Shown here piece after piece: positions 12,703 to 33,661 of a stretch of DNA of 58,310 nt. Source of the DNA: Candidatus Woesearchaeota archaeon (lineage in GTDB: Archaea > Nanobdellota > Nanobdellia > Woesearchaeales > JAGVYU01); the NCBI GenBank assembly GCA_043810355.1, contig JBDROB010000070.1, positions 1 through 58,310 on the forward strand. The letters run 5' to 3'. The translations under genes and the position numbers were made by a program. Within the stretch, counting starts at the first letter, position 1. Each line of letters begins with the position of its first letter. The notes beneath the pieces were generated by a model, which was given only the letters and a program-made list of their open reading frames with translations, was not told the origin of the DNA and did not search any database.

Positions 12703-12703
12703 T

Positions 12704-12862
12704 ATGTCAGAAATATGCCGCTGGCCTGCATGACCAGTGGGCAATAGTCCGCAATCCATTTTTGGAAGGCGGTATATTTCTGAGCATGCTCAAAGCCAGC
12801 AGGGTGAGCGAAGCGAACATGCCGCCAGCATATTGACTGGTGGTTCCTGCCGGCTTTGACAT
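12704..12862 (+). repeat. 159-bp structured dispersed repeat, copy 1
   Basis: ATGTCAGAAATAT...CTTTGACAT; highly similar, same-length copies at 39039-39197 and 56209-56367; starts 1 nt after the antiporter stop. Confidence 0.95.
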
Positions 12863-12924
12863 GAGGCATGATAAAACCAAAAAAATAGCAAAACTTAAAT
12901 ACTTAAATTTCAAAGGGTTTGATA

Positions 12925-13808: not shown

Positions 13809-13942
13809 AATACCCCGACCTTTAGGTCGGAATTTTTAATGCTAAAAAATGCTTTGCATTTTTTGCACACCAGAAATTTGCTAAGCAAATTTCTCAGTGT
13901 CCCAAAAACCAAACGATAAATACCCCTGCCTTTAGGCAGGGG
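13809..13942. mobile_element. Probable non-autonomous IS200/IS605-type mini element (two end-like hairpins)
   Basis: Hairpins CCGACCT-TT-AGGTCGG (13815-13830) and CCCCTGCCT-TT-AGGCAGGGG (13923-13942), both in an AATACCCC context and in direct orientation; resemble IS200/IS605 subterminal palindromes; no transposase between them. Confidence 0.5.
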
Positions 13943-14012
13943 AATAGTTCGGTTTTTGTTATATTTGGAAAGAGCAAAAAATGAGCTTGACCTTGCCAAT
14001 GCAATCTTCAAA

Positions 14013-17174: not shown

Positions 17175-20100
17175 ATGACACTACGAAGATCTATACTTAT
17201 AGTTGAAAGTGGTCCTAGAAGGGCTGATCTAGAAGGGGTTTTAAAAGCTTCTTTTCCAGATTATACTATTTATTCTTTTGCTCAGCCTTCAGATGTTAAT
17301 CTTCCAGAGTTAAGCGGTGTTGATGTTGTAATCGGAGATTATGCCTTTAGTGATCAAGGGGATTTTATGCTAGCTGAATTGGCTCAACATAATCCTAATG
17401 CAAGGCAATTAATTTTAGCTAATCAGGATCAAGTTTCCAAAGCAGTTGGTCTTATAAGCGATGGTAGAATAAATGGGTATATTCTGAAGCCATTAGAAGC
17501 GATTGAGGCAATGGTTGTTCCTGTTCTTGAGGAATTATTTCAAAGAATCCATCTTTCAGGAAGTGAATTTCAGGCATCACAACTTGACCAAAAAAGGGTT
17601 ATTGATATTTTTAAAGATTATGGCAATCCTATATTAACTAAGTTATTGCAAATGTTTGGCATGGACACACGTTTTGCAAAGGCAGAAGGCCAGTATGTGT
17701 TTGATGCTGATGGAGAAAAATATTTAGATTTGCTTGGTTCTTTTGGGGCTCTTAATTTAGGTCATAATCCTCCTCAGATTGAAGCAAAGTTACGAGAGAT
17801 TGCTATGTCTCCAAAATTACTTCAGCCCGGACTTAATCCTTATCATGCAGAAGTACTTATGCTTCTTGACCAAATAACGCCAGATTCTGTTTCTAGAGCT
17901 TATTTAGCAAACAGCGGAGCTGAAGCAACAGAAGCAGCTCTTAAATTAGTGGCAGCAGCTACTGGAAAAAGTGCTGTTGTCCATACACAAGGATCATTTC
18001 ATGGAAAAACTCTTGGTGCACTTTCTGTGACCGGAAATCGCAAATATCAAGGACCTTTTAGTGGTTTACTGGTCCAACAACCAGTTATCCCTTATAATGA
18101 TCCAGAAGCACTTGAAAAGATGTTAAGTTCAAGAGATGACATTGCTGCTTTTATTGTTGAACCTATCCAGGGAGAAGGAGGAATTAATGTGCCTTCATCT
18201 GATTATTTGCAAAGAGTTAGGGATATTTGTACTGAACACGGTGTTTTGTTAATTGTTGATGAAATTCAAACTGGACTTGGTAGAACAGGAAAAATGTTTG
18301 CCTCTTCAGATATAAATCCAGATGTTTTACTTATTGGAAAATCACTAGGAGGTGGTCATGTACCTGTAAGTGCAATGATGACTTCTGATAAATTATGGAA
18401 TCTGGCATATGGAACAACTGATAGTGCATTATTGCATACATCTACTTTTAGTGGAAATACTACTGCTTGTGCAGTTGCTGCTGAGTCGATAAGAACATTG
18501 CTAAGTGGTAATTATATTGATAGAGCCAAAGTATTGGGGGATTATCTTTTATCTGGATTACAATATTTACAAGAAATGCATGATATTATTAAGGAAGTCA
18601 GAGGGCAAGGATTAATGATTGGTATTGAATTTAACAAACCCTTTCTTGGAAACCTAATGACTGAGAATTATCTTGGTCAAATAATTGCAGGACAATTATT
18701 CCGTAATTACCATATTATTACTTCTTTTACTCTTAATCGACCAAACATTTTGAGAATTGAACCTCCTTTAACAATAACAAAGGAGGATATTGATTATGCC
18801 TTAAAGTCTATGGATGACCTATTTACAAGATTACCTAAACCAGAACATCATGTAGCCACAATGATACAGTATATGACAAGTGAGGATCTTGATGAAATGG
18901 TTGAAATGGGAACAATTATTGGAGGAAGACAAGAACCAGTTGATTTGGATTCTGCTCATGTGAATGTTATTGCAGATAGACTGATAGCAGATCCTGCTTT
19001 ACTTATGTTAAGAACTAAAACATATGGATCTCTTGATCCTGATCGACGCGAACTGGTTTCGTCAGTTTATACAAATACAATAACTGAGATAAATCAAAGA
19101 GCTTTACAAGCTTCATGTGATGCTGCTAAAGATTTTCATGCAGTTCCCATGTCACAAAGACATAAAGCTCTTGCCAAGTGGGGTGATTTAGTTACAGAGA
19201 ATTTTTCAAGTTTGGTAAAAATAGGCACATTTGAAGGTTTTAGTTATCAAGCTATGCTCTGGCAATTAGACACTATCTTAAATATTCTTGATCCTGAACA
19301 TTTGGTTACTTTAGAAAATATGATGAGGCCTTACCAAACAGCACAAGGTTCAAGAACAGTGTTTTATCGAGAATCAATTCCTGGAGTTGTTGGAATTACT
19401 CCTGCCGCTAATGCTGCAATTGTTTTAGGAACATTAGGTGTTGCATCATCTGTCAGTAGTGGAAAATCATTTGTAATGTCTGCAGGTACCTCTCTTACTA
19501 CGCATACTTTAATGAATTATCTTATAGATGCGTTTGAGGAAAATGGAATTGATCCTGCTCCTATTAATGTTATTTATAGCAATAACAGGGGTTCGATAAA
19601 GGAATGGCCTGGATTTGGAATAAGTGATAGTGGAATTGTGACAGTTGATCCTTCTCTTGAACAGAGAAGAGCTCTTGATTTTGTTGCTTATTGGGGACCA
19701 AGGAATGAAAAACTCATGGAATCTTTTGATAAAGCCGGAATTCAGGGCAGTTATGACCTTAATGGATCAGATCCTATTATTGTAAATAAAGATGCTGACA
19801 TTGACAGAGCTGTCTCTGACATAATGCTTAGGTATGCTGCAAGTGGACAAATATGTATTTCTCCAAAAAGAGCAATTGTGCATGAAGATGCAGCAGGGAT
19901 TGTGTTAGAGAAAGTTAATTATGAAATTAAACAATTACGTGCAGGACTGCTATCAGATCCAACAACAGATTTAATGCCTGTACCTGGCATAAGAGACAGA
20001 AGTAGGTATGAAGAAGCTATTAAACAAGCACTTGGAGAAGGAGGCTTAGTTTATATTAGCGGGGAATTAGTTCCTCTAGGAACAGAATTTTCAAGCTTAG

Positions 20101-20552
20101 AATTATGTCTTGATTACCAAGGAAAACCAGTTGCTTTTGGACCTTATTTAGCACCTGCTGTTGTTCAGGTTCCTCCAGGAAAACAATTTATTGCGGCTTT
20201 AGAAGAAATGTTTAATCCTTTATTATCTTTTCAAATATTTTCAACTCCTGAAGAAGCTATTAATTTAGCTAATAGTTCACGATATGGAATTCGAGCAGGA
20301 GTATGGGCTGAGGATACTCAATTTGTTAATGAGTGTGTTACAAGAATAGGTTCTGCATCGGTATTTGTTAATACACCTCACCTTAACTTATCGCCAGATT
20401 CTCCTGATTTAGGGGGTGGCAAAGATTCAGGTAGAAATATAGGTCCTGGAGGAGCGAAATACTTAGTATATGAATTTGCAGGACCACTTAAACAAGTTAA
20501 ATTCTATTCAAAAGAAGCTGCTAAAGCATTTATGGCTGGATACAAACCTTAA
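17175..20552 (+). CDS. Fusion: receiver domain + class III PLP aminotransferase + aldehyde dehydrogenase-like domain
   Basis: REC: ILIVE, VVIGD, GYILKP. AT-III: YLDLLGSFGALNLGHN, NSGAEATEAALK, SFHGKT, EPIQGEGG, DEIQTGLGRTG, GKSLGGG. ALDH: GITPAN, DLNGSDP, SGQIC, EEMFNP, ANSSRYGI. Confidence 0.85.
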   Translation: MTLRRSILIVESGPRRADLEGVLKASFPDYTIYSFAQPSDVNLPELSGVDVVIGDYAFSDQGDFMLAELAQHNPNARQLILANQDQVSKAVGLISDGRINGYILKPLEAIEAMVVPVLEELFQRIHLSGSEFQASQLDQKRVIDIFKDYGNPILTKLLQMFGMDTRFAKAEGQYVFDADGEKYLDLLGSFGALNLGHNPPQIEAKLREIAMSPKLLQPGLNPYHAEVLMLLDQITPDSVSRAYLANSGAEATEAALKLVAAATGKSAVVHTQGSFHGKTLGALSVTGNRKYQGPFSGLLVQQPVIPYNDPEALEKMLSSRDDIAAFIVEPIQGEGGINVPSSDYLQRVRDICTEHGVLLIVDEIQTGLGRTGKMFASSDINPDVLLIGKSLGGGHVPVSAMMTSDKLWNLAYGTTDSALLHTSTFSGNTTACAVAAESIRTLLSGNYIDRAKVLGDYLLSGLQYLQEMHDIIKEVRGQGLMIGIEFNKPFLGNLMTENYLGQIIAGQLFRNYHIITSFTLNRPNILRIEPPLTITKEDIDYALKSMDDLFTRLPKPEHHVATMIQYMTSEDLDEMVEMGTIIGGRQEPVDLDSAHVNVIADRLIADPALLMLRTKTYGSLDPDRRELVSSVYTNTITEINQRALQASCDAAKDFHAVPMSQRHKALAKWGDLVTENFSSLVKIGTFEGFSYQAMLWQLDTILNILDPEHLVTLENMMRPYQTAQGSRTVFYRESIPGVVGITPAANAAIVLGTLGVASSVSSGKSFVMSAGTSLTTHTLMNYLIDAFEENGIDPAPINVIYSNNRGSIKEWPGFGISDSGIVTVDPSLEQRRALDFVAYWGPRNEKLMESFDKAGIQGSYDLNGSDPIIVNKDADIDRAVSDIMLRYAASGQICISPKRAIVHEDAAGIVLEKVNYEIKQLRAGLLSDPTTDLMPVPGIRDRSRYEEAIKQALGEGGLVYISGELVPLGTEFSSLELCLDYQGKPVAFGPYLAPAVVQVPPGKQFIAALEEMFNPLLSFQIFSTPEEAINLANSSRYGIRAGVWAEDTQFVNECVTRIGSASVFVNTPHLNLSPDSPDLGGGKDSGRNIGPGGAKYLVYEFAGPLKQVKFYSKEAAKAFMAGYKP

Positions 20553-20553
20553 A

Positions 20554-21705
20554 ATGGCAAGAAGAATAGAGACTTTTAATGGAGATTTTGATGAGTTGCG
20601 TGACTTGATATTACGATCTTGGCATCCTGCTTATGATGGTCAAGCTGCAGTTTTTGATTATAGTGTACCATATTTGCAATGGAATCTTCAAGGCTCTACT
20701 TCTGATAAAGAGTTATCTTTATCTTATTACGATGGAAGTACCCTAGTGGGATTTGTGGGGGGAATGCCAAGAACTTTTAGTCTATTTAGTTCTCAAACAG
20801 TAAATGGAAGTTTGTGCAGTTTTTTATCATCTGATGTTAGTACCAAAAGAAGTAGAATCGCTTATGATCTTGTAACTCATTCTTCCGAGAGGCATCATCA
20901 AAGAGGTTATGATTTCCCTTTCTTTTTTTTGGATAAGAATTTTTCAGGGTCTCATCTTCTTTTTCATAAGCATGCTGATGAACATATTTACGATCTCGTA
21001 AGTCTTCCCGACACAAGTTTTTTAATTAAAGTTTTTGATGCTCAGAGATTTAGTGATTTAGATGCTTCAGTATCTAATATAGAGAGAAGAATTCTCAAAA
21101 TGTGGGAATCAGACCCTGTTCCTTTTGAAGTTGATGGCAAAATGCGTGAATATGATGATTCAGATCTTAGCACTTGTTTGTCTTTATTAAACTCCTATAA
21201 ATTCCATATTAATCTTGCTCGTCATTGGACTGAAGATGAATTACAATGGCAATTGTCACATCAAGGGATTAGTAGTACAACTGTATTTGAGAAAGACAAT
21301 CAAATTCAAGGGTTAATAAATTATCATGTAGTGCCTATGCATGGTCGGCCAGGTGTTGCTGGATCTCTTGCAATCATTGATAATATTTATTGGTTTAATC
21401 TTTCTGATCGTGAAAGACAATCTTTTTTATCACAAACTCTGAACCAGATCCAACAATCTCAAGATATACTTGGTGTTTTGGTTTTAGATTTTCCATATTA
21501 TAATCATCAAGATAATTCATCTGTTAAAATTGGAAAAAAGAGTTTTATTTTGAGATCTTTAACAAATCTGGTTCATAACAAACCGTTTAGAAAAACAGGT
21601 TTCTTACCTTTATTGCGTAGATTGGAACCAAATTTTATTGTATATGATCCTGCCATTGCTTCACAAATTGGAAAATGCAATTCAGTGTATTCAGATTTTA
21701 GATAA
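20554..21705 (+). CDS. N-myristoyltransferase-like tandem GNAT acyltransferase
   Basis: Start MARRIE 1 nt after the upstream stop; FDYSVPYLQW, LVGFVGGMP, SFLSS...RSRIA, MREYDDSDL...LLNSY, WTEDELQW parallel NMT motifs (FDYS.EFL.W, LVGFISAIP, NFLCV..LRSKRVA, LRPM...D...LL..Y). Confidence 0.65.
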   Translation: MARRIETFNGDFDELRDLILRSWHPAYDGQAAVFDYSVPYLQWNLQGSTSDKELSLSYYDGSTLVGFVGGMPRTFSLFSSQTVNGSLCSFLSSDVSTKRSRIAYDLVTHSSERHHQRGYDFPFFFLDKNFSGSHLLFHKHADEHIYDLVSLPDTSFLIKVFDAQRFSDLDASVSNIERRILKMWESDPVPFEVDGKMREYDDSDLSTCLSLLNSYKFHINLARHWTEDELQWQLSHQGISSTTVFEKDNQIQGLINYHVVPMHGRPGVAGSLAIIDNIYWFNLSDRERQSFLSQTLNQIQQSQDILGVLVLDFPYYNHQDNSSVKIGKKSFILRSLTNLVHNKPFRKTGFLPLLRRLEPNFIVYDPAIASQIGKCNSVYSDFR

Positions 21706-22833
21706 TGATTTAATCACAAAAACACATTCCTTCTTACCTTGAGCTATACATATAAGCTCCTCACATTTAAACTTCTCTGTAAATAATGTCTGAAATAAAT
21801 TCTCCAAAACTTGAGCTAGGAATAGGTCTGTTGGGTTCTTTGAAATTCCGAATATTTTTTTATATTCATCGGCAAATGGGTTATTTATATTTTTTATTAT
21901 GAACTCTAAATTCTTAAGGTTAGATTTAACAATAATAAATTTACCAAAGCAAGAAAGCGAAAGACGATTCAAAAAGAAAATAAGTTCATCTTTTGTTTTG
22001 ATTTCTTGATTTCTTTTCTTAATTATTCTTTTGACATGGCCTTCTGCCAGTAACATTAGCGCTTTTCTTGCTTTCTTATTATTGATTTCTTCTAGCTTTT
22101 TATTCAATATCACTATACAATAACAAGGAAATAAAACTCCTTGAGTGTTCTCAAAACCAACAGACCCTTCTGTGAAACTAAAAGGTAACTTTTCTTTTTT
22201 ATTATTGCTTATACTCTTTAACTTAGCAAATACACTAGTAAAGCATTTTTCAATCTCTTTTTCAATCTTCAAATGATTTTCATTTAAATCCTTCTTTTTT
22301 TCAAGTTTGCATACAAAATTACAAGATTTGTCACCCCTTCCCAAACATTGAGTTTCAATAGTATAAAAGTTCTTTTTATGAATGGTTTCGAGCACTCCAC
22401 TGATTAATCCGCTAAAATAGAAATTCATAACCTCTTTGGACTTTTTAGATTGATTAGCTTTTAATGCAATTGGCATATTTGTTATCCTTATTTTATATTC
22501 TTTCTTTTCTTCATTTACACTATACAACTCCGCTGATCCATATCCTATTAGGTCGCTTTGTTCAATAAACATCTTATAGCTTCCTTTAAAAATAAAACCA
22601 AATCTTTTGATTATTATTAATGCACCCATTTTGCCTTGGTTTCTTCCAATCTCATAAATTATCTTTTTATATTGTTCATCAAACTCATTTTGAATAAAAA
22701 GGAGATAATCAGAAAAAGATTGAACTTCAAAATAAGTGTAAGGTAAAGAAGATAAATGTAATAATCCCTCAGAGAACTTAATTTCATTAAATCTAAGTAT
22801 ATTGTAAATAAATTTTATAATTCTATTACCCAT
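21691..22833 (-). CDS. Tandem V4R (4-vinyl reductase) domain protein
   Basis: Two repeats ending ETQCLGRGDKSCNF and ELICIAQGKKECVF; IIYEIGRNQG, LIGYG, FSGLISG features. Confidence 0.8.
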   Translation of the reverse strand: MGNRIIKFIYNILRFNEIKFSEGLLHLSSLPYTYFEVQSFSDYLLFIQNEFDEQYKKIIYEIGRNQGKMGALIIIKRFGFIFKGSYKMFIEQSDLIGYGSAELYSVNEEKKEYKIRITNMPIALKANQSKKSKEVMNFYFSGLISGVLETIHKKNFYTIETQCLGRGDKSCNFVCKLEKKKDLNENHLKIEKEIEKCFTSVFAKLKSISNNKKEKLPFSFTEGSVGFENTQGVLFPCYCIVILNKKLEEINNKKARKALMLLAEGHVKRIIKKRNQEIKTKDELIFFLNRLSLSCFGKFIIVKSNLKNLEFIIKNINNPFADEYKKIFGISKNPTDLFLAQVLENLFQTLFTEKFKCEELICIAQGKKECVFVIKSLSKI

Positions 22834-22927
22834 AGAGTATATTTAATTTAGACAATATATTAATGTTTCTGAATATATTAGAAAAAAGTTAGGATAGATC
22901 ATGTTTGTGTTCAATTAAGTTTGTTAC

Positions 22928-23374
22928 TCAAGAGGGTCTTAGTTGTTCATAAATTTCTAAACCCTTCTGAATTCTTGCACACAGTCTTTTTCCATATTCA
23001 GGTTTTTTCTTGTCAATCCAACCAACTAAAAGTCCTGGATGATTAAGGGCATCTTCCATAACTTCTGGACCTGCTTGTGCTGTATTCATAATTATTTGAG
23101 AATATGGTGATATTCTTTTAATGGCTAGAGCGGAGTCAAATCCGTTTTTTACTAGAGAATTATCATCTTTGGGAGGTGCTTTGTAGTCAAGTATCACAAT
23201 AGGTACCTCATATCCTTCTTTAATAGCCTCTTCCACAAAATGTGCAACTTCATCTGGATATTGTGATTTACGAAGATTAAAGCCATCAAACTTTTCATGC
23301 TCTCTTATCTGAGTGACAACTATATCTAAACCTGTTTTTTCATCATCCATAATATATATTATTCCTTTTCTCAT
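22928..23374 (-). CDS. Single-domain response regulator
   Basis: IYIMDDE, VILDYKAP (phospho-Asp), MNTAQ, WIDKK. Confidence 0.85.
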   Translation of the reverse strand: MRKGIIYIMDDEKTGLDIVVTQIREHEKFDGFNLRKSQYPDEVAHFVEEAIKEGYEVPIVILDYKAPPKDDNSLVKNGFDSALAIKRISPYSQIIMNTAQAGPEVMEDALNHPGLLVGWIDKKKPEYGKRLCARIQKGLEIYEQLRPS

Positions 23375-23400
23375 TTTTTTACTTTAGAGTGAATATTTTA

Positions 23401-25377
23401 TTATAAATCTTTTGGCTCTTTTGGTAATCTGACTTCAAAAACTGTTAATTCTGGGCTTGAATATACACTAATTTGACCATCATGGTCACTAATTGCATTA
23501 TAACATTGAGATAATCCAAATCCAAGGCCCTTTGCTTTTGTTGTAAAAAAAGGATCAAAAATTTTAGTTCTTAAGTCTTCTGGAATTTCAGGACCATTAT
23601 TTGAGAATCTGACAACTATAGAGTCCCTTTCTTGAAATGTTTCTAATCTTATCATCCCTTTATCTTCAACTGCTTCAATACCATTTTTTAACAGATTAAG
23701 CCATGCTTGATTAAGATCTGCTACTTTGCCATAAAACTCTGGAATAGAACCATATTCTGTTACTATTTGAACATTTTTTTTCTTTGCTTCATGGTTAATT
23801 AAACTAACAGTTGTTTGTAAGTCTTCAGCAATATTAGTAAGAGCAACAGTTTCTTTTTCATGTCTTGAAAATCCCAAGATTGCATTTACAATTGTTGAGA
23901 CTCTTTGCACACCTTCTCCAAGGTTCCTTACTCTTCTTTCATAAACTGATGCAAAATCAAATATTTTTCTAAATATCTCTTCTGAGATTAGGTACTTGTC
24001 AGCAAGTCCAAATATAAATTTAACATCTTCTCCCTTTAGGCCAGCTTTTGCATATGATTCAGCTACTATTATTGCTCTAGGTACATTTCTTTCTTCAAAT
24101 AAATACTCCATTGCCTCCGCATTGGCTTCTACTTCTCTTTCTTCTATTTGACATGACTGAATAAACTGGTGAATTATAAACTTATATCTTTCAAATTCAT
24201 TTGGTTCAAATATTTGTTCAAAAACATTTTGACTAAGGTCTCGAACAACTTGCCTGTATTCTTCCAAAGTATCTACAGATGGCCTAACAGGAAGCAATGC
24301 ATTTCCCATTTCATGTGCTATACCTGCACTAAGCTGCCCTAAAGAAGCCATTTTTTCTGATTGGACAAGTTGAGCTTGTGCTTCTCTGAGTTCAGCTGTC
24401 CTTGCTTCAACCATTTCCTCAAGGTGTTCTGCATATTCTTTAAGTTGGGTTTGAGCTCCTTGGAGATCCTTATGAGCCCCTTGAAGCTCAAAGAATTGGC
24501 TTTCAGAGTATTCTAATTGTCTTTCTATCATAGCTCTTGTAATAAAATATTGTTTTAATCTCTGGATAGGAAGATGTACTAATCGGTGTCTTAGACTTGG
24601 ATTCTGCCATTTCATATCATATTGACAATGAGGTGCTCCATAAATTCGACCTGATGTCAATACAACTTTTCCATCAATAGATAAATCTTTTAGCACTGCT
24701 ACTCCATTTCTTCCATTATTATTTTGGACATGGACTTCCTTACCATATACTTGGCCATTGATCAACACTTTTTCATCCTCTCTTGTTAACTCTAACCCAA
24801 GATGTGAATATCCTTCAATCACTTCTTCAATAGTGAATATACATCTTGGTTCGTTAATATCTGCTACAGGCAAGTCCCAAATAGTAGGGATTGTTGCAAT
24901 AATTCCTTTGTTCCATGGACACATTAAATATATTGAAGTATCCCTTACCAAGGGATTATATCCTATAGTAACTGTTGCAGAATTATTTCCCAGATCTGAA
25001 ACATCCATGTCAAATATCCTATTGAATCTTCTGTTATACTTTGGAATCTGGCTAACTATAAACCTTGGATTTCCAAATAATCTAACCATATTTTCAAGAA
25101 TACCTACAGAACGTAACTTGGACATATTGACACCAATCTCATAGAATAAATCAGGATCTTGGTTACCTAATAACTCTTGTATAGATAAAACTAGTTTTCT
25201 TGCATGATTCCAGTCTATCCAATGATTTGGATCAGAAACAAATTCTTCTGTCAACTCACTTCCTTCAAAGAGGTGACTAATATCCCCTACTTCAGACATT
25301 ACAAACTGAAGCATAGTGTTGTAATTCATACAACTTACTCTTGTCTCAGGATCAATATCTAATTGTAATTCCCCCAT
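23401..25377 (-). CDS. Cytoplasmic sensor histidine kinase with N-terminal V4R/HNOB-like domain
   Basis: QLVQSEKMASLGQLSAGIAHEMGN (H-box), LNQAWLNLLKNG (N), NNGPEIP, IFDPFFTTK, GLGFGLS; no TM; N-domain CPWNKG...EPRC...GAPHCQYDMKW Cys pattern. Confidence 0.9.
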   Translation of the reverse strand: MGELQLDIDPETRVSCMNYNTMLQFVMSEVGDISHLFEGSELTEEFVSDPNHWIDWNHARKLVLSIQELLGNQDPDLFYEIGVNMSKLRSVGILENMVRLFGNPRFIVSQIPKYNRRFNRIFDMDVSDLGNNSATVTIGYNPLVRDTSIYLMCPWNKGIIATIPTIWDLPVADINEPRCIFTIEEVIEGYSHLGLELTREDEKVLINGQVYGKEVHVQNNNGRNGVAVLKDLSIDGKVVLTSGRIYGAPHCQYDMKWQNPSLRHRLVHLPIQRLKQYFITRAMIERQLEYSESQFFELQGAHKDLQGAQTQLKEYAEHLEEMVEARTAELREAQAQLVQSEKMASLGQLSAGIAHEMGNALLPVRPSVDTLEEYRQVVRDLSQNVFEQIFEPNEFERYKFIIHQFIQSCQIEEREVEANAEAMEYLFEERNVPRAIIVAESYAKAGLKGEDVKFIFGLADKYLISEEIFRKIFDFASVYERRVRNLGEGVQRVSTIVNAILGFSRHEKETVALTNIAEDLQTTVSLINHEAKKKNVQIVTEYGSIPEFYGKVADLNQAWLNLLKNGIEAVEDKGMIRLETFQERDSIVVRFSNNGPEIPEDLRTKIFDPFFTTKAKGLGFGLSQCYNAISDHDGQISVYSSPELTVFEVRLPKEPKDL

Positions 25378-25451
25378 GAGAGTTAAGAATGAATAACAAT
25401 ATTTAAATTTAATGAGTTAGATTTATATAGTATTTTATTTATAATTATATT

Positions 25452-26561
25452 ATGCTTGAAATAATTGAGGTGACAAATAATAAGAATCTTAAGAAGTTTC
25501 TTAAATTTTCTAATAAAATATATGAAAATGATAAGAACTGGATTAAACCATTTTTAGATGAGAAAAAAAAGTTTTTCAGTGATAAAAATCCTCAATGGAA
25601 ATATATAGAAAAATATCCATTAATCCTTTTAGACAATAACAAGATTGTAGGGAGAATATGTGGATTTTTAGACAAAGAAATCATGAAAAAACAATCATTA
25701 GGATTTTTTGGATTTTTTGAAGTGTTAGACAATCCAAAATACTCAAGATTATTATTAAACAAAGTTGAAGAATGGCTAAAAAATAAGAATGTGAATAAAA
25801 TAGTAGGTCCAATAAATAGCTCACTTGAAAATTATACTGGATTTCAATTAAAAGGATTTAACCAAATCTCAACTCCTTCTCTTACTTATACAAAAAAATA
25901 TTATATCAAACATATGAGAAAAAATAATTATAATCATATAAAAAAATTAAATGCATATATAATCAATTTAGATGAATTTAATGTATCAACATTGAAACCT
26001 TTACACAATAATATAAGGACAAATATTCGACCTTTAAATATCAAAGAATTTGATATTGAATCAAGATCTATCTTGGATATCATCAATAATTCATTTCCAG
26101 ATGACTATTTTGGCTTCAGAAAAATCAATATTGATGAATGGAAATTTTTAATTGAGTCTTTAAGACCTCTAATCAATCCAGAGGATATCTTAATCTATGA
26201 AGAGAATAAAAAACCAATTGGAGTTTTGTTTAGTATTCCAAATATAAATATCATATTAAGGACAATAAAACTAAAAAATGATTTTATCAGGAAACTATTA
26301 CTATTCTTTAGAAAAAATTCAATATCAATGAGGGTAATCTCCTTAATATGTATAAAAAGAAATAATACTCAAAAAGGCATAGGCAGTTATTTGATGTCAG
26401 CTTACATCACTCAGGCAAAAAAAAGGGGAATAAAAAATATTGAATATTCTTGGGTTTACGATGATAATCAAGTATCAAAATCATTAATAAATAGATTCAA
26501 TGGAAGAAAATATAAAATATACCAATTATTCCAAAAAACATTAGTTAAAAATCACAAATAA
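25452..26561 (+). CDS. YghO / bacterial ceramide synthase (bCerS)-like GNAT N-acyltransferase
   Basis: IYENDKNWIKP, KNP, VGRI, GFFGFFE, EEWL, IVGPIN, KGF, YY, QKGIGS acyl-CoA loop, EYSWVYDDN pattern of this family. Confidence 0.75.
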   Translation: MLEIIEVTNNKNLKKFLKFSNKIYENDKNWIKPFLDEKKKFFSDKNPQWKYIEKYPLILLDNNKIVGRICGFLDKEIMKKQSLGFFGFFEVLDNPKYSRLLLNKVEEWLKNKNVNKIVGPINSSLENYTGFQLKGFNQISTPSLTYTKKYYIKHMRKNNYNHIKKLNAYIINLDEFNVSTLKPLHNNIRTNIRPLNIKEFDIESRSILDIINNSFPDDYFGFRKINIDEWKFLIESLRPLINPEDILIYEENKKPIGVLFSIPNINIILRTIKLKNDFIRKLLLFFRKNSISMRVISLICIKRNNTQKGIGSYLMSAYITQAKKRGIKNIEYSWVYDDNQVSKSLINRFNGRKYKIYQLFQKTLVKNHK

Positions 26562-27243
26562 TATCTTTACCTGCATAAACATAATCATTTTCCTTAATAT
26601 TTATCTGAATATTCTTTTTTCCGATCTTGTCAGGTAAGATAAGATCAACTTGTGATCCCATCTTTATCATCCCTATCTTCTGGCCTTTATTGACAATATC
26701 ACCTCTTTTTCTCCAGCAAACAACCTTTTTTACAACAGTATCAGCTATCTGGATAATATAGACTGGAAATGACTTATCTTTGACCTTTCCCATTATCAGG
26801 ATTGTGTTCCTCTCATTCTCCAGTTCATAGTTATATTGGCCAGGTCTGGACAATTTATGGAAAATGACTTTGATCAACATGATCAACATTGACTTATTCT
26901 TGTGTGTTGTGTGCTTAATAAAATCAATCTTTCCAGAAACAGGAGCTCTATTGACATGGACACTTAAAGGATTCATAAAAATTCCAATTATATACCCATT
27001 CTTTATATTCTCCTTGATGTGAGTGATTTCCTGTAGTTTGATACTTCTTCCATTCTTGTTTGGATTTGGAATCTTTCCATTTGAAAATCTCTTGATATAA
27101 ACAACTGTGCCATCAGCTGGACTCACTAGATTATTCCCAGCAGGTATCCATCTTTTTGGATCCCTGTAAAATAATGCATATTTCCAAATAATTGTAAGTG
27201 CTATTAAAACAATCAATAATATCAATAAAAAATTTAATAACAA
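26545..27243 (-). CDS. psd: Phosphatidylserine (archaetidylserine) decarboxylase proenzyme
   Basis: N-terminal TM, FYRDP.R, SPADG, IFMNPLSVHVNRAP, ENERN, GMIKMGSQVDL (GS pyruvoyl cleavage site). Confidence 0.88.
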   Translation of the reverse strand: MLLNFLLILLIVLIALTIIWKYALFYRDPKRWIPAGNNLVSPADGTVVYIKRFSNGKIPNPNKNGRSIKLQEITHIKENIKNGYIIGIFMNPLSVHVNRAPVSGKIDFIKHTTHKNKSMLIMLIKVIFHKLSRPGQYNYELENERNTILIMGKVKDKSFPVYIIQIADTVVKKVVCWRKRGDIVNKGQKIGMIKMGSQVDLILPDKIGKKNIQINIKENDYVYAGKDIICDF

Positions 27244-27258
27244 AATTACACCTCTTTT

Positions 27259-28803
27259 TCAATCATATTTATATTTGATCTTTGAATGGTAAGGGAACTT
27301 ATCAAATGGATAGAACCTGACAATGATATAATCCTTTTTTCCATAGACTTTCTTGAAATACTTCTCTTTTGGTTTTAGATCAGGAATCCTGTCAAACAAA
27401 CCTTTTCTGATTGCATTTGTAAATAAGTTTATCTTGTTTTTTGGAATTTTAACGTTTTCTTTTAATTGGATCTCAACAACAAGATATGAGTTGTGTTTTT
27501 TATCATAATCAATCTTTAAATGGAAGTTTCCTGTTGTTTTTCCTCTAAGCAGTTTATTCTTAATCAAGATTGCTTCAACTTTGGTTGGAAATATCAGTGA
27601 TCCATAAAAATTGACTGTACCATCGCTTCTTCCTCTGATGTAGACAAAAGGGAAAGGGACTCTTAATCTTAAGTTAATCTTATTCTTCTTAAGGATTTTC
27701 CTCATCTCATAATAGGAGATGATACCTCCAATATCCTGAAGATTATATTTTATCAATGGCAAGACTGAGTTTAGATCTACAATTGAGAATATTATTTCCT
27801 TATTTTCATTTACCTGAAGAATGTATCTTGTAGGGTCATATTGAAATAACAATGGCAATCCTTTGGTATCTCCATAAACATCTTTTTTTAAATTCTTATT
27901 ATTTCTGGCAATTCTTCTTATCTTTATAGACTCAAACTCTTCGTTTATTCCAGTTATTCCAACATCAGAAGCTCCAAATGCAGAATAAATGTACCCTCTT
28001 TTGTTAATATCATCTGGTTTCTTTCCAATCAATTTGTAGAGATAGTCTCTCATCTCTTCAGGCATTGGCTCACCGCCAAGAATAAGATTAATATTGTATT
28101 TTTTCCAGTCAATCCTATTCTTTTTACCTTGCTCAAGAAGGTTTTTTACAAATGGAGGATAACCTGTTATAATGTATTGGTCAAACATGTTCTTGAATTC
28201 TTTGACAATATTGATTGTGTCTTCAATATCTGGTCCAGGATTGATTAAAGTCGAATGTCCGTCAGCAATTCGAGCAATCTCAATCCCAGTTATCCATGAT
28301 CCAAAAGCAAAAGTGTTGATAAAAAGTGTTTTGTATTTATAAGTTTCAAATAAAAGATCTAGACCAATTGTAGCAAACACTTTTTCTTCCTTTTCTTCCT
28401 CTTGAGATCTTGGCCAAATGGTTGCTTTTCCACTGTGACCTGAGCTCTCAAAAAGTATGTCAATCTCACTTGTGTCATTATTATAGCATAATTCCTTAAA
28501 TGATCCTGCCTTTTTAATATAATTAAATTTTGATGTGATTGGAACATTTTCAAGAAAATCATTGAATTTTCTTATGTTATCTGGATCACACTTGTTTTTC
28601 TTAAGAAATTTCTTATAAAAAGGAATCTCTTTGCTAGCTTTCTTGAATATGAGCATTGCCTTTCTCTTTCCAATGTCCTCTAGAATTTGCGGATCTGATC
28701 TTAAGAGCATTTTCTCTAATTTTTTAGGTTTCTTGCTTATCAATTTAACATACCTTTCAATAACAGAAATAGGGATTAATCTATATAGACCTCTTTTTAG
28801 CAT
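27259..28803 (-). CDS. Phenylacetate--CoA ligase (PaaK)-family adenylate-forming enzyme
   Basis: IPFYKKFL, SSGHSGKATIWPR P-loop, GYPPFVK, GGE, FGASD, PLIKYNLQD, GRSDG. Confidence 0.85.
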   Translation of the reverse strand: MLKRGLYRLIPISVIERYVKLISKKPKKLEKMLLRSDPQILEDIGKRKAMLIFKKASKEIPFYKKFLKKNKCDPDNIRKFNDFLENVPITSKFNYIKKAGSFKELCYNNDTSEIDILFESSGHSGKATIWPRSQEEEKEEKVFATIGLDLLFETYKYKTLFINTFAFGSWITGIEIARIADGHSTLINPGPDIEDTINIVKEFKNMFDQYIITGYPPFVKNLLEQGKKNRIDWKKYNINLILGGEPMPEEMRDYLYKLIGKKPDDINKRGYIYSAFGASDVGITGINEEFESIKIRRIARNNKNLKKDVYGDTKGLPLLFQYDPTRYILQVNENKEIIFSIVDLNSVLPLIKYNLQDIGGIISYYEMRKILKKNKINLRLRVPFPFVYIRGRSDGTVNFYGSLIFPTKVEAILIKNKLLRGKTTGNFHLKIDYDKKHNSYLVVEIQLKENVKIPKNKINLFTNAIRKGLFDRIPDLKPKEKYFKKVYGKKDYIIVRFYPFDKFPYHSKIKYKYD

Positions 28804-28870
28804 AAAATACCTTAATGATATTTATTGTATATAAATCTTATTCTTTAAGAGATAAAAAGAAAAAGAGATG

Positions 28871-30016
28871 TTAAAATTTATATCTTAGAGCAAATGTTGT
28901 TCCAAACCCACGAGTATCATCATGAGCAGTGCTTGTAAAAGTATACCCAATTCCACATTTAAGGCTCAATCTTTTACTCAAGGATCCTTCTCCACCTAAC
29001 CAAGGAGTAAAATAAAACATTTCAACATCCATAGGAGAAACATAGGAAATCAAAGGTATATCAAAAATACTAACACTAATATCCCCTTTAGCTTTAAGAT
29101 GAGAATATCCAAACTCTCCTTCAACATAAGGTTTAAATCCTTTGAAGAATCCAATAAATCTATTTATATCTTGATCAAATTGAGGTCTACCAAGCGGATA
29201 ATATGTCGGACCAGTTGATACTGAGAACATTGATCTTTCTAAATCAACATTTAATCTTAATGGTCCTGCAGACTTTTCATTCTCGATATCTGCATCAATA
29301 TAACCAACTAAAAAAAACCAACCCAACTTATCAGGATACCTTTCATCAAAAATCTTTCTATCAAGAGTCACAAAGCCATTGCTCAATAATCCCTTGTTCC
29401 GATATTTTGTTGTGAATGTATCAATATCAATACCCATTTTTCCAAACATATCTAGCTGATCTTCTGATTTGAGTTTAGGGTACCATGAAGACATTCCAAT
29501 AGAAACAGACCATTTGCTGTCCCTATCCTCAACATAAACAGGCTTGTCAGGATCTAGACTAAGGTCTCTGACTGTGCTTAACTGAGTGAAATCTAGGTTG
29601 TCAAGAAGCCTTGTGGCTTCAAATGCCTGATCTCCTGGAAGAAGCATAAGTCTTGGCTCAAGAGGTGGGATAGGTTCATCTCCTCCATAAGATCTAATGT
29701 TGTCCAGTCTCAGTCTTTGTCCTGTATCAAAGTCAGTTACTACTTTCTCAGGTCCATCTGAACTTAGAGCTGGCTGGTTTCTGCTGCCATCTGAAGAATA
29801 AGGGTCAAAAGGCCTGACTGCTGCTGGACTTGTTGTGTGGCATCCAATTGCAAGTAGGATTGAGGCTATTGTTGTACCTATAATTGGCAAGCGATAAGAA
29901 GATCTTCTTTGTATGGGAATGTGTTCTTGCACCCGGTAGACTCCTCTCCTTTTAGTGATATCAACAGGCCTATCAAGTATCTCTTCACAAATGCCTGTTA
30001 AGTCAGAGTATGCCAT
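28871..30016 (-). CDS. Putative lipoprotein with C-terminal outer-membrane-type beta-barrel
   Basis: Start MAYSD; h-region ending LAIGC; about eight amphipathic strands incl. FKPYVEGEFGYS, LSLKCGIGYTF and terminal GFGTTFALRYKF (C-terminal Phe). Confidence 0.6.
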   Translation of the reverse strand: MAYSDLTGICEEILDRPVDITKRRGVYRVQEHIPIQRRSSYRLPIIGTTIASILLAIGCHTTSPAAVRPFDPYSSDGSRNQPALSSDGPEKVVTDFDTGQRLRLDNIRSYGGDEPIPPLEPRLMLLPGDQAFEATRLLDNLDFTQLSTVRDLSLDPDKPVYVEDRDSKWSVSIGMSSWYPKLKSEDQLDMFGKMGIDIDTFTTKYRNKGLLSNGFVTLDRKIFDERYPDKLGWFFLVGYIDADIENEKSAGPLRLNVDLERSMFSVSTGPTYYPLGRPQFDQDINRFIGFFKGFKPYVEGEFGYSHLKAKGDISVSIFDIPLISYVSPMDVEMFYFTPWLGGEGSLSKRLSLKCGIGYTFTSTAHDDTRGFGTTFALRYKF

Positions 30017-30099
30017 TTTAATACTATCGAGAATACTAGGATATTTAAAAATATTATTGTTTTTCTTATTATAGAATGAATACAATAATTGAATTGGCA

Positions 30100-30247
30100 T
30101 GGACACTGGATGGTATCATTCGCTTTGCTCTTTCTTTTATCCTGTTTAAGGTGCTAAAAGCTTATGCTTTCACCACTGATAGTGTCACTCGTTCCTTTAT
30201 CCAGTGCCCAGCACTCAAACTTTGGGTTTGAGCATTGGACACTGGAC
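30100..30247. repeat. Structured intergenic palindromic element
   Basis: TGGACACTGGAT (30100-30111) pairs with ATCCAGTGCCCA (30199-30210); hairpin CTCAAAC...GTTTGAG; TGGACACTGGA repeated near 30236; GAGCAAAGCGAA on minus strand at 30119-30130. Confidence 0.5.
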
Positions 30248-30353
30248 ATTCTGAGACAAGGTTTATATATAAATTCCAATTATGCAATCAAAGGTGTTGG
30301 CAATTGGAGATTAAATTTTCAAAAAAGAAAATTGAATTAGATAAATATTTAAG

Positions 30354-30512
30354 ATGAAAGTTCCTGATATTGATCTTGAAAAGCTAGAAAAATTTAAAGA
30401 AAAGAATTTCAAGGATAGGCTGGACTTTATAAGAAAGTATGCAGAATGGATAAAAAAAACACCAAACAAGGAATGGAGTTCTCAGCAGAAGAAGATTATC
30501 AACAAAAATTAG
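30354..30512 (+). CDS. 52-aa hypothetical protein (not in ORF track)
   Basis: Hand translation MKVPDIDLEKLEKFKEKNFKDRLDFIRKYAEWIKKTPNKEWSSQQKKIINKN*; host-like codon use; fills the gap up to the convergent patatin stop. Confidence 0.6.
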   Translation: MKVPDIDLEKLEKFKEKNFKDRLDFIRKYAEWIKKTPNKEWSSQQKKIINKN

Positions 30513-31297
30513 ATCTTTTTCAGAACCTTATCAGCCTCTCTAACACCTATCTTGATCAGCTTCTCTGTCTGTGAAAAGTCAGTAATGTGCAGATGCTCTG
30601 GAAGAAGCGGGCTTATCTCTATAAGTTTCTTTATCTTAAAGCTTAGAATTGAGTTCATGATCAGCTGGCGCTTCATCATCTCGCTCACATAATATGACAT
30701 ATTAAGGATTCCTTTTATCTCTTTTGATTGCTTATGATATCCGAGGTTCACTAGTATGACTTGGTCACATCTCAATTCCCTTATTTTATCCAATCCGAGA
30801 TAATTTGAATGACCTCCATCAATATAATAACTGTTGTTGATCATGACTGGCTCAAAAAAAGGAGAGATTGCACAGCTTGCAACTATAGGGTCTTGTAGAT
30901 TGCCCTTATAGAAATAATGGCTTTTTCCATCACTCAATTTTGTACAATTGATATATAACGGCCTTACCAGGTCTTTAAATGATTCTGCCTTAAGATTCTC
31001 ATTTACCAGTTTTTTTAATCCTCTGTTGCTAAACAAGGACTCAATCTTATGGAATTTGTAAAATATCCTCCTGTTCAGGGGAAATATCTTTTTCCTGCTG
31101 ACTCCAATCCATATCCTCTCAAGATTAAGTATGTTCTCAGAAAAATCCTTGCCGTCAAGAAATACAGCAGCATTCAATGCTCCAACACTTGTGCCTATAA
31201 ATACATCTGGTATCAGTGATTGACTCAGAACCTTGAGGACTCCAACTTCAACAGCTCCTTTCGAGCCACCTCCAGTAAGAACCAAAGCTGTTTTCAT
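30509..31297 (-). CDS. Patatin-like phospholipase
   Basis: GGGSKG oxyanion loop, GTSVG nucleophile Ser, ASCAISP, DGG catalytic Asp. Confidence 0.9.
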   Translation of the reverse strand: MKTALVLTGGGSKGAVEVGVLKVLSQSLIPDVFIGTSVGALNAAVFLDGKDFSENILNLERIWIGVSRKKIFPLNRRIFYKFHKIESLFSNRGLKKLVNENLKAESFKDLVRPLYINCTKLSDGKSHYFYKGNLQDPIVASCAISPFFEPVMINNSYYIDGGHSNYLGLDKIRELRCDQVILVNLGYHKQSKEIKGILNMSYYVSEMMKRQLIMNSILSFKIKKLIEISPLLPEHLHITDFSQTEKLIKIGVREADKVLKKI

Positions 31298-31391: not shown

Positions 31392-32096
31392 ATGGAAAGA
31401 GTGAAAACATATATTAAAGGCATGGACGAGATATTAGGAGGAGGATTTAATAAAGGTACAGTAGCATTGATAGCAGGTGGAGCAGGTTCTGGAAAATCAG
31501 TGCTAGCAATGGAATTTGTCTATAATGGGATAATAAAAGACAAGCAGCCAGGAGCATTCATATCTTTTGAAGAGGAAAAATCCAATGTATATGCCTGGAT
31601 GAAAGAATTTGGATGGGATCTGGCTGACCTTGAAAAGAAAAAGAAATTTGTGTTCCTTGAATATACTCCTGAGAAAGTGAAGAAACTATTGGATGAAGGA
31701 GGCGGACTGATATCAACTGCTCTTGAGAAGATAAAGGTCAAAAGGATAGCAATAGACTCAATCACCTCTTTTACATTATTATTCAAGGATGAACTGCAGA
31801 GAAGAGAGGCTTTAGTGGATTTATTCAAGCTATTGAGGAGATGGAATGCAACAACAGTTGTTACTGGCGAGTTTGAATCAAATATTGAGGAGCATATATC
31901 AAATGCACTTGAGTTTGAAGTTGACAATATTGTCCTTTTATATCATCCAAGGAAAAAGGACCAAAGGGAAAGATCGATAGAAATATTAAAGTCACGGGGA
32001 AGCTCTCATATTGAAAAGGTGTTTCCTTTTAAGATAGGGGAAAAAGGAATAGAAGTGTTAACAAAGGAAAGAATAGATTATTACAGAAGAAAGTAA
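31392..32096 (+). CDS. RAD55/KaiC-like ATPase (second paralog)
   Basis: GMDEILGGG, GGAGSGKS, SFEE, IAIDS, ILKSRGS. Confidence 0.9.
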   Translation: MERVKTYIKGMDEILGGGFNKGTVALIAGGAGSGKSVLAMEFVYNGIIKDKQPGAFISFEEEKSNVYAWMKEFGWDLADLEKKKKFVFLEYTPEKVKKLLDEGGGLISTALEKIKVKRIAIDSITSFTLLFKDELQRREALVDLFKLLRRWNATTVVTGEFESNIEEHISNALEFEVDNIVLLYHPRKKDQRERSIEILKSRGSSHIEKVFPFKIGEKGIEVLTKERIDYYRRK

Positions 32097-33047: not shown

Positions 33048-33383
33048 TTAAATGAATAAAGAATTTAATTTTCTTAAAACTTGTGCAAACTTTTTCTGGT
33101 TAAGCATATCAATCTTTTTAATAATTAAATCTTTTTTAATTCTTAAAATTGCATCAACTTTTATCAATGATTTCCTGCTTAACACTCCTATTTCAACATC
33201 ATTCTTATCAATTAATAATGAGTGAGGTTTTTCACTTATCTGTGAAGTCATAGCACATACAAGGATATCCTCTCCTGAATCATTAAATGAGTTTTTAGAA
33301 ATAACTATGGCTGGTCTGATCTTCTTGTTTGATTGGTCAGAAAAGGGAAATGGCAAAAGCACTATCGATCTTTGTTCAAACAT
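33048..33383 (-). CDS. MazF/PemK-family toxin
   Basis: IVLLPFPFSD...KIRPAIVIS, CAMTS; start ATG 33383. Confidence 0.88.
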   Translation of the reverse strand: MFEQRSIVLLPFPFSDQSNKKIRPAIVISKNSFNDSGEDILVCAMTSQISEKPHSLLIDKNDVEIGVLSRKSLIKVDAILRIKKDLIIKKIDMLNQKKFAQVLRKLNSLFI

Positions 33384-33385
33384 TT

Positions 33386-33661
33386 TTATAAATATTCTCT
33401 CCATACTTTATCATCTTCCTCATTATCCCAAATGTCTTTTAAATTAGCTTCTGCTAAAGCAAGAAGGCCCAGGTCCTCCTTTTTTCCCTCTGATGATTTT
33501 AATTTTTTTAACATTTTTTCAATTACCTCAACTTTTTGCAGAGTTAGCTTATTACCTTCCTCTAGCAATATCAACTTAGTGCCTTTATCAATCTTGTGCC
33601 TTTTGCGAACATGTTCAGGGATAACAAGCTGTCCTTTTGATGATACTATTATAGATTCCAT
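33386..33661 (-). CDS. AbrB/MazE-family antitoxin
   Basis: VSSKGQLVIPEHVRK AbrB motif; acidic tail IWDNEEDDKVW; directly upstream of the toxin. Confidence 0.88.
   Translation of the reverse strand: MESIIVSSKGQLVIPEHVRKRHKIDKGTKLILLEEGNKLTLQKVEVIEKMLKKLKSSEGKKEDLGLLALAEANLKDIWDNEEDDKVWREYL

Follow-up and report, generated by a model that had tools for sequence, protein, structure and literature searches.

Several described systems have a counterpart in the archaeal locus considered here, which occupies positions 17175-31297 of a contig from Candidatus Woesearchaeota archaeon (assembly GCA_043810355.1, contig JBDROB010000070.1; the entire 58,310-base contig was analysed and is called the window below). 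Among these systems are the operons that pair PssA with the phosphatidylserine decarboxylase Psd (family PSD), the adenylate-forming enzymes PaaK and LuxE, and the H-NOX sensors that are paired with histidine kinases in bacteria. LuxCDE constitutes a fatty-acid reductase, in which LuxE is the acyl-protein synthetase. The bacterial ceramide genes Spt, bCerS and CerR, present in Caulobacter and in many phyla, are likewise close to the locus. According to the available portions of PMC11087976 and PMC11334938 these three genes are 'often found clustered'; the available text of the former describes bCerS-type enzymes as biosynthetic, and that of the latter reports no archaeal metagenome-assembled genomes with Spt-like proteins in its dataset.

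Ten open reading frames (ORFs) follow one another in the window locus, and four of them, encoding a ligase (LIG), a PSD, a GNAT and a sensor kinase (window 23401-28803), form a conserved core. An earlier note, drawn up from the letters of the DNA alone, had described ten consecutive genes and proposed a linked locus for acyl-amine or lipid synthesis with a sensing system of its own. On examination of the ORFs, of Pfam and NCBIfam matches and of structural models the domain content was largely confirmed, and the ligase, PSD, GNAT, lipases and sensor kinase were indeed found to recur together in other genomes. All of the enzyme families have been described before; what is new is the set, comprising their combination, the PSD and GNAT clades dedicated to it and the H-NOX-fold kinase next to them. 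The genes are as follows, with the evidence for each in brackets.

17175..20552, + strand: fusion of a REC-like part (aa 1-130), a class-III aminotransferase (aa ~165-550) and a divergent aldehyde dehydrogenase (ALDH, aa ~615-1092); accessory (Pfam, NCBIfam)
20554..21705, + strand: NMT-fold tandem GNAT, 383 aa from the second Met; accessory (sub-threshold Pfam matches and Atlas model)
21691..22833, - strand: tandem V4R protein, 380 aa (Pfam V4R, two stretches)
22928..23374, - strand: stand-alone receiver-like protein, 148 aa (Pfam Response_reg E=0.16; homology)
23401..25377, - strand: soluble histidine kinase with an H-NOX-like sensor (aa ~10-260), coiled coil, H-box and HATPase_c; core (Pfam, AlphaFold2 model, Foldseek)
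25452..26561, + strand: bCerS-like GNAT, 369 aa; core (Pfam Acetyltransf_1, family context)
26545..27243, - strand: PSD-family pyruvoyl decarboxylase with one N-terminal membrane helix; core (Pfam, motifs)
27259..28803, - strand: LIG, PaaK/LuxE-like adenylate-forming ligase, 514 aa; core (NCBIfam, PDB profile matches)
28871..30016, - strand: lipoprotein-like protein with lipobox LLAIGC and a C-terminal 8-stranded beta-barrel of the outer-membrane-protein (OMP) type (AlphaFold2 model, Foldseek)
30509..31297, - strand: patatin-like lipase that recurs near LIG, with the motifs GGGSKG, GTSVG and DGG (Pfam)

Recurrence and affinities of the core genes

The ligase was used as an anchor in a 401-genome sample of the order, from which 20-kb stretches around its matches were taken, and 48 loci from a one-genome-per-species scan were added; with loci on an identical contig counted once, 26 archaeal LIG loci in 25 genomes were obtained. 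The sample includes five genomes flagged as unpublished (G337, G315, G211, G134 and G209), all of which are among the 112 genomes with PSD; their loci were left unread and, beyond the PSD count, no claim depends on them. Neighbourhood figures are given as raw counts without a test, since related genomes are not independent. LIG homologues were detected in 24 of the 401 genomes, 19 of them strong. Within 5 kb of LIG, the sensor domain of the kinase is found in 15 of the 26 loci, PSD in 10, GNAT in 8, an alpha/beta hydrolase in 7 and patatin in 5. The recurring map consists of hydrolase, LIG and PSD on one strand, a divergent GNAT and then the sensor kinase, and window 23401-28803 has the same map. 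Only 0-24 bp separate LIG from PSD in nine of the ten loci that have both, the gap in the tenth (L065) being 177 bp. The core map occurs in separate families of the order, and an independent scan with the GNAT profile showed the sensor-GNAT-PSD-LIG arrangement on six further metagenome contigs. The grouping of the core genes exceeds chance.

LIG has no Pfam match. NCBIfam TIGR02155 recognizes it at 3e-17, with a score (62.2 bits against a cut-off of 646.3) under the equivalog level for phenylacetate-CoA ligase. A profile of 18 LIG sequences matched PaaK (4r1l) at 2.4e-22, LuxE at 5e-10 and the amide-forming ligase Cfl at 1.7e-9 in the PDB, and S120 and G122 of the SSGxSGKPT phosphate loop as well as the C-terminal K510 are invariant in the alignment. 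Judging from these matches LIG is a PaaK-like ANL enzyme with putative use of CoA, so that the name 'CoA ligase' given in the earlier note holds for the adenylating family and is putative for the cofactor. The ANL fold and motifs are shared with PaaK and LuxE; however, LIG differs from them in its score (62 against 646 bits), in having PSD, GNAT and sensor kinase as partners and in lacking a paa or lux context. LuxD-LuxE-LuxC is brought to mind by the hydrolase-ligase pair of the module, close to which a reductase of the ALDH superfamily or SDR type is encoded. Distant LIG relatives (25-33% identity) were also seen in Saccharibacteria, Staskawiczbacteria, Chloroflexota and Actinomycetota (L072, L073, L078, L082, L083, L093), where they adjoin a nitroreductase-like protein of ~325 aa, usually directly downstream. 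This is a different and unexplained conserved pair and, as PSD is missing from it, it is uninformative on the archaeal module.

The window PSD is the sole PSD of its genome. It matches PS_Dcarbxylase of Pfam at 6e-40 (137.4 bits against a cut-off of 22), while its best NCBIfam score, 140.9 against a cut-off of 183, is below equivalog level. Amongst the ten LIG-linked PSDs the autocleavage site G196-S197 (GS(197)QVD), D44 and H96 are invariant, and an N-terminal membrane helix is predicted in all ten. PSD is found in 14 of the 19 strong LIG genomes as against 98 of the 382 others. As a sample of ordinary PSDs, twenty places of the order were fetched, and an ORF with PSD was found in 18. The ordinary PSDs adjoin a CDP-alcohol transferase in 17 of these 18 loci, and the transferase scored as PssA over the curated cut-off in four of the five genomes tested. 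A quick tree of 28 PSDs gathered the ten LIG-linked sequences in one group, with a support of 100 in the Shimodaira-Hasegawa-like approximate likelihood-ratio test (SH-aLRT), nested among the PssA-linked ones, and two genomes (G024 and G295) each possess one LIG-linked PSD plus one ordinary PssA-linked copy. The separate clade, together with LIG and not PssA as the constant neighbour, indicates that the module has a PSD paralogue of its own. With the PssA-Psd operon it shares the PSD family, the invariant pyruvoyl-forming Gly-Ser and the membrane anchor; it differs in that it follows LIG, belongs to a separate clade and lies in a genome in which no PssA was found by profile searches.

PSD, PssA and a protein of ~178 aa were also observed to form a conserved operon in 17 of the 18 ordinary PSD loci (L195-L214), suggesting that many Woesearchaeales can make serine and ethanolamine head groups.

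The 369-aa GNAT carries a C-terminal Acetyltransf_1 domain (Pfam, 1.4e-9) and belongs to a large family that is unnamed in the source databases. Amongst the best 80 metagenome relatives, 55 adjoin an Aminotran_1_2 protein of ~393 aa, 49 an SDR/epimerase of ~335 aa and 49 a PAP2 protein. The top NCBIfam match of the adjoining aminotransferase is serine palmitoyltransferase (560 bits, cut-off 640) and that of the PAP2 protein, which is weak, is phosphoinositol-dihydroceramide synthase. This neighbourhood matches the Spt-bCerS-CerR cluster as it is presented in the available portions of PMC11087976 and PMC11334938. The window GNAT aligns end to end with a GNAT of such an Spt cluster (L186 5986-7110), with 27% identity over 371 aa and an E-value of 5e-52. 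In a quick tree of 80 rows, from which identical rows and ORFs of less than 300 aa were left out, 11 PSD/LIG-linked GNATs fall on one side of a branch with an SH-aLRT of 100, with long branches flagged. The description 'bCerS-like' in the earlier note is borne out by the gene context in 55 of those best 80 loci and, on alignment and context, is correct at the family level, the archaeal GNATs being a sister group with another set of partners. Both kinds of enzyme would N-acylate a lipid amine. The window module differs from Spt-bCerS-CerR in using a PSD paralogue and an ANL ligase as the amine-making partner, in its archaeal host and in its separate GNAT branch; a search with the NF047600 profile gave no match for an Spt-like gene in this 87.6% complete genome, CerR is absent from it, and the neighbours of the GNAT are PSD and LIG.

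The kinase has a HATPase_c domain (Pfam, 67 bits) and an H-box with His355 in AHEMGN; no membrane segment is predicted, in agreement with its earlier description as soluble. Its first ~345 residues are common to the LIG-adjacent signalling proteins. The AlphaFold2 model of the sensor, with a mean predicted local distance difference test (pLDDT) of 84.4, consists of an H-NOX-like domain, a small beta domain and a long helix. Foldseek matched it to H-NOX with a probability of 1.00, an E-value of 5e-6 and template-modelling (TM) scores, by target, of 0.62-0.71; weaker fold matches include the palmitate-bearing TRAPP subunit Bet3 and the ligand-binding N-terminal domain of VirS. The earlier note had attributed sensing to a V4R-kinase, a proposal that did not hold, as the kinase has an H-NOX-like sensor domain of its own and the V4R protein is separate. 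As in the bacterial H-NOX/kinase pairs, the sensor fold feeds a histidine kinase; the window sensor differs in being fused to the kinase, and the conserved His was not seen in the family alignment. The sensor was detected in 16 of the 401 genomes, that is, in 12 of the 19 strong LIG genomes and 4 of the 382 others, and stands beside LIG in 11. In one locus it is fused to a PP2C phosphatase (PP2C/SpoIIE), and HD-domain proteins take its position in three LIG loci.

Two receiver-like sequences accompany the kinase in the window, one at the N-terminus of the fusion and the other the 148-aa protein. Both can be aligned, to one another as well as to the N-terminal part of a reductase in a second genome of the same genus (G001), and the acceptor Asp and the Lys are invariant in this three-way alignment. 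The 148-aa receiver is homologous to the N-terminus of that REC-reductase (phmmer 2.8e-8) and to a REC protein (Pfam 7e-11) that adjoins the kinase in L070. The receiver-enzyme fusion pointed out in the earlier note recurs, in the congener, as a REC-reductase.

Proposed function and competing explanations

The lipid genes found in this genome (G000; 1.46 Mb in 83 contigs, 87.6% complete) are CarS and one CDP-alcohol transferase, which is of the PgsA type (153.7 bits, cut-off 109.1). Neither PssA, nor an Spt-like gene, nor GGGPS over the cut-off was found in the profile searches at this level of completeness. CarS and a PgsA-type enzyme without GGGPS, PssA and Spt fit the remodelling of acquired lipids. 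DPANN archaea are thought to be host-dependent for lipids.

A tentative but realistic reading is that the module makes an N-acylated amine lipid, of the ceramide-like or the N-acyl-ethanolamine type, and is linked with a two-component system responsive to a hydrophobic ligand; the protein families and folds, the intact catalytic motifs, the gene linkage and the separate PSD and GNAT clades are observed, and the substrates, the order of the steps, the product, the signal and the tie of the flanking genes to the core are what we infer. The patatin, or an alpha/beta hydrolase in relatives, would release a fatty acid from a scavenged lipid, and the soluble LIG would turn it into an acyl-adenylate or thioester. 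The membrane-anchored PSD paralogue may decarboxylate a serine-type head group to a primary amine, which the bCerS-like GNAT would then acylate. The soluble kinase would bind the lipid-like substrate or product in its H-NOX-like pocket and phosphorylate the neighbouring receiver. In G001 this receiver is joined to a reductase; in the window, the fusion protein is possibly a further target of the kinase. The flanking genes (the fusion, the NMT-fold GNAT, the V4R protein and the barrel lipoprotein) would be additions of the genus or strain that modify amines or acyl groups or handle surface lipid. Four observations point to lipids: PSD has a membrane anchor, the GNAT is kin to those of ceramide clusters, lipases are present, and both variable cassettes have a lipid-related content.

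A bolder version, which we consider unlikely, is that Woesearchaeota make ceramide-like amide lipids without serine palmitoyltransferase: LIG would join a fatty acid to a serine-type compound, PSD would convert this into an amino-alcohol lipid, the GNAT would add the second chain and the H-NOX-fold kinase would sense the lipid.

Several observations weigh against assigning the module to an amide lipid. With a genome completeness of 87.6%, any of PssA, Spt and GGGPS may have been missed in assembly. PSD is common without LIG in the order, as the 98 of 382 genomes indicate, and six of the 26 LIG loci lack all five partners over a distance of 5 kb. Of these six, three carry an HD-domain protein or different genes in their stead, and one a PanD-type decarboxylase together with two KaiC genes. 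In this last genome (G365) PanD, an aspartate decarboxylase and thus a small-molecule enzyme, follows LIG in the place of PSD. LIG is nearer to phenylacetate-CoA ligases (2.4e-22) than to LuxE (5e-10), which makes the fatty-acid substrate a guess. The GNAT is on a branch apart from the Spt-linked ones and need not have the same substrate. The sensor alignment (14 sequences) has no column conserved at 90% or above except the start Met, which renders haem binding doubtful and does not allow a ligand site to be named. Both receivers are under the Pfam threshold (E 0.026 in the fusion and 0.16 in the 148-aa protein). Lastly, co-conservation with the core does not extend to the aminotransferase-ALDH and NMT-like genes, which were not found in the same-genus genome.

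The two KaiC genes of G365 (L048 7790-9141) lie directly before LIG, with the PanD-type decarboxylase after it.

Some of these points would suit a synthase-receptor pair for a small diffusible N-acyl amine, a quorum-sensing-like signal, in which the decarboxylase would supply a small amine (ethanolamine or beta-alanine, for example) for acylation by LIG, alone or together with the GNAT, and the adjacent H-NOX-like kinase would be the receptor. LIG is most tightly associated with a signalling protein, whose sensor domain is joined to varied outputs (kinase, PP2C/SpoIIE), and HD-domain proteins hold the same position in three loci; PSD is replaced by PanD in G365, amide-forming Cfl is among the PDB matches of LIG, and KaiC-like signalling ATPases flank the window locus and adjoin LIG in G365. 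Nevertheless, the N-terminal membrane helix is kept in all ten LIG-linked PSDs, the nearest relatives of the GNAT are in lipid (ceramide) clusters, lipases and an OMP-type barrel accompany the module and no export gene is conserved with it, and we regard such a signal as improbable. Salvage or breakdown of scavenged host lipids, where lipases strip the chains, LIG re-activates them, PSD converts host phosphatidylserine, the GNAT caps or detoxifies amines and the kinase tunes the process to supply, seems to us decidedly unlikely. The lipid genes of the genome, which fit reliance on outside lipids, and the patatin and alpha/beta hydrolases that recur beside LIG are in its favour. So are the best NCBIfam matches of the fusion, which include putrescine aminotransferase for the aminotransferase part and aminobutyraldehyde and succinate-semialdehyde dehydrogenases for the ALDH part; aminotransferase followed by ALDH is an amine-to-acid, catabolic domain order. 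However, the dedicated clade of PSD paralogues, which G024 and G295 retain in addition to an ordinary PssA-PSD pair, speaks for a substrate of its own and not for bulk turnover, and bCerS-type enzymes are biosynthetic in the available text of PMC11087976.

It is very unlikely that the locus is a chance accumulation of unrelated arrivals, some of them bacterial, in a variable hotspot, with no common function. The earlier note had allowed for this in case homologues never co-occurred elsewhere, and for the core they do, elsewhere in the same order. The 17-26.5 kb stretch is wholly different from the same-genus genome, the GC content of single genes lies between 23.7% (GNAT) and 36.5% (the nearly unique fusion), that of the genome being 34.9%, the named relatives of the barrel domain are bacterial (Hydrogenedentota), and a MazF toxin gene and repeats lie nearby. 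Against this, the order of the four core genes is shared by separate families and by six additional metagenome contigs, the co-occurrence of sensor and LIG is far over background, and the linked PSDs and the linked GNATs form one clade each; a chance origin is refuted for the core, and the accessory genes on its flanks are the only ones for which it is tenable. A role in antagonism or defence, with the patatin as a sensor-controlled phospholipase effector, is, in our judgement, most improbable. The patatin does match CBASS-type and other anti-phage phospholipase models weakly (NCBIfam 1.3e-9; PADLOC 3.6e-11) and the region varies between congeners; however, the other 15 proteins scanned had no PADLOC match except one weak KaiC-like and one weak winged-helix match, a cyclase, nuclease or NTPase partner is absent, and patatin is present in only 5 of 26 LIG loci.

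If the product of the module is an amide lipid, sphingolipid-like chemistry would extend to Archaea by a route free of serine palmitoyltransferase. Should the bolder, ceramide-like version hold, neither an amide-lipid (sphingolipid-like) pathway nor a lipid-sensing two-component system would have been described in Archaea before, and it might explain the correlations between sphingolipids and Nanoarchaeota which, in the available portions of PMC11334938, are set aside as false positives. In the literature searched, part of it represented by titles and the openings of abstracts, there was no description of the module or of a ceramide-synthase relative in DPANN archaea. As a conserved module of four to six genes, it offers a testable handle on how DPANN archaea take up, remodel and monitor lipids.

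Accessory genes and the same-genus genome

The accessory genes are variable even within the genus. The earlier note had treated the aminotransferase-ALDH fusion and the NMT-like gene as parts of the same circuit and suggested a search for co-conservation; this succeeded for the core genes and not for these two, and consequently the overall interpretation is retained for the core and its sensing and not for the role of the two enzymes or for sensing by V4R. That the fusion and the NMT-like gene act in one pathway with the core is a conjecture.

The fusion (1125 aa) combines Aminotran_3 (1e-94) and Aldedh (3.4e-42) of Pfam in one protein, with the pyridoxal-phosphate lysine motif GKSLGGG at aa 389 and the catalytic Cys in GQIC at aa 894. 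On alignment of its ALDH domain to betaine-aldehyde dehydrogenase (2wox) the catalytic Cys and Asn are kept, while the general base is changed from Glu to Asp (YDLNGSDP against MELGGKSP), KPSE is replaced by SAGT and the glycine-rich NAD motif is lost. The best NCBIfam match of the aminotransferase domain is PigE of prodigiosin synthesis, to the aminotransferase part of PigE only and below cut-off, and the matches of PatA/PatD type (putrescine aminotransferase and aminobutyraldehyde dehydrogenase) are all far below their cut-offs. The window enzyme differs from both in its REC-like fusion, its Glu-to-Asp change in ALDH and its lack of the usual NAD-binding motifs. No aminotransferase-ALDH fusion was found in G001-G003. 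Amongst 7,997 candidates scored of 5.8 billion clusters there is one other fused relative, P0122, on a 4.5-kb contig; it is 50% identical to the window fusion and is without the REC-like part. Within the order, the closest relative of the ALDH domain is a stand-alone 524-aa protein in G105 with a V4R protein two genes upstream. In this genome the V4R protein, a 463-aa protein and the stand-alone ALDH relative lie in a row (L219 7025-10591), and the 463-aa neighbour has no sequence match in the PDB.

The NMT-like protein scores under both Pfam cut-offs (NMT_N 20.0 against 25 bits, NMT_C 19.1 against 27.9 bits). The NMT-like fold suggested earlier is supported by its Atlas model, with TM scores of 0.76-0.78 to eukaryotic NMT clusters; the nearest clusters are those of a bacterial 350-aa Acetyltransf_9/1 GNAT (TM 0.86). 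The start of its longest ORF, at 20470, was discarded in favour of the likely start at 20554.

The V4R protein has two V4R stretches (56.9 bits, Pfam cut-off 31) and a counterpart of 398 aa in G001 that is 26% identical. The patatin matches Pfam at 9e-25 (88.4 bits, cut-off 27.7), with its motifs at aa 9, 35 and 160. The C-terminal 232 aa of the lipoprotein were modelled by AlphaFold2 with a pLDDT of 91.1 as an eight-stranded barrel ending in a C-terminal Phe, and Foldseek matches range from 1e-6 to 1e-3 (Ail 1.3e-6, OmpX 1.1e-5, OmpA and OmpW), so that the beta-barrel noticed earlier is confirmed. Of 30 members of the barrel family, 2 match Pfam OMP_b-brl weakly, and the named ones amongst its ~40 distant relatives are Hydrogenedentota bacteria. 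The barrel resembles OmpX, Ail, OmpA and OmpW in the fold of its last 232 aa and in the C-terminal Phe; it differs in being encoded by an archaeal gene, behind a lipobox and an N-terminal region known from this genus only. We know of no outer membrane in such organisms. The protein is a mosaic in comparison with G001, the first 172 alignment columns being 89% identical and the barrel 27%.

G001 keeps the V4R protein, kinase, PSD, LIG and lipoprotein. At the DNA level KaiC is 93% identical, the S-layer gene 69%, PSD with LIG 82% and the 5' half of the lipoprotein gene 89%; patatin and KaiC, at 91% DNA identity, lie on another contig of G001, near its end. In G001 the interval from the S-layer gene to PSD is occupied, in this order, by genes for a split alpha/beta hydrolase, the tandem V4R protein, a methyltransferase, an MprF-C-like transferase, an SDR/thioester-reductase with an N-terminal receiver and the kinase. 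The kinase is 25% identical to that of the window and has the same sensor, and the best matches of the methyltransferase are of the N-methyl and cyclopropane-fatty-acid synthase types. By their matches, the enzymes swapped into G001 are again of lipid- or amine-modifying families.

Contig integrity and other features of the window

The contig is archaeal on either side of the locus, with housekeeping genes for the proteasome alpha subunit, SBDS, exosome subunits, IleRS, NOG1 and L10e flanking it. The nearest named loci elsewhere bear the title Candidatus Woesearchaeota, with a few under 'uncultured Methanosarcinales archaeon', 'Nanoarchaeota archaeon' or 'archaeon'. A search of sequencing runs recovered 19% of the sampled words of the window in one groundwater study and listed no RNA dataset that contained them. 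Reads of two runs gave short contigs only, one of which bridges 20418-20612 exactly, the other gene junctions being unspanned. The question of a chimeric insert, raised in the earlier note, is thus answered only indirectly, through the synteny with G001 and the recurrence of the core map on other contigs.

KaiC-like single-domain ATPases are encoded at both flanks of the locus (window 12919-13650 and 31392-32096), and a MazF/PemK-type toxin gene lies 1.7 kb past it (window 33048-33404). An intergenic repeat of ~164 nt is present at window 12699-12862, 39034-39197 and 56204-56368. The genome contains ~20 copies (83-93% identity), several at contig ends, and the congener G001 more than 40. It has a strong predicted RNA fold (-78.4 kcal/mol, z -6.7) and no Rfam match, as was the case for the window as a whole, in which the Rfam scan matched no family; it could be an element like a miniature inverted-repeat transposable element or a structured RNA. 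Of a second, shorter repeat (window 13826-13965) there are 6 more partial copies in the genome, and one copy in G001 is situated between the lipoprotein gene and the next gene, where synteny ends.

Further along the same contig as the barrel lipoprotein, a bacterial-type prolipoprotein diacylglyceryl transferase, Lgt, is encoded (window 40285-41115; Pfam 244 bits). Both Lgt and a protein combining a lipobox with an OMP-type barrel are unusual for an archaeon, and together they bear on how the envelope is built in such cells. A 671-aa protein at window 50671-52686 has a C-terminal lytic transglycosylase (SLT) domain, which represents a bacterial cell-wall-cutting activity on an archaeal contig.

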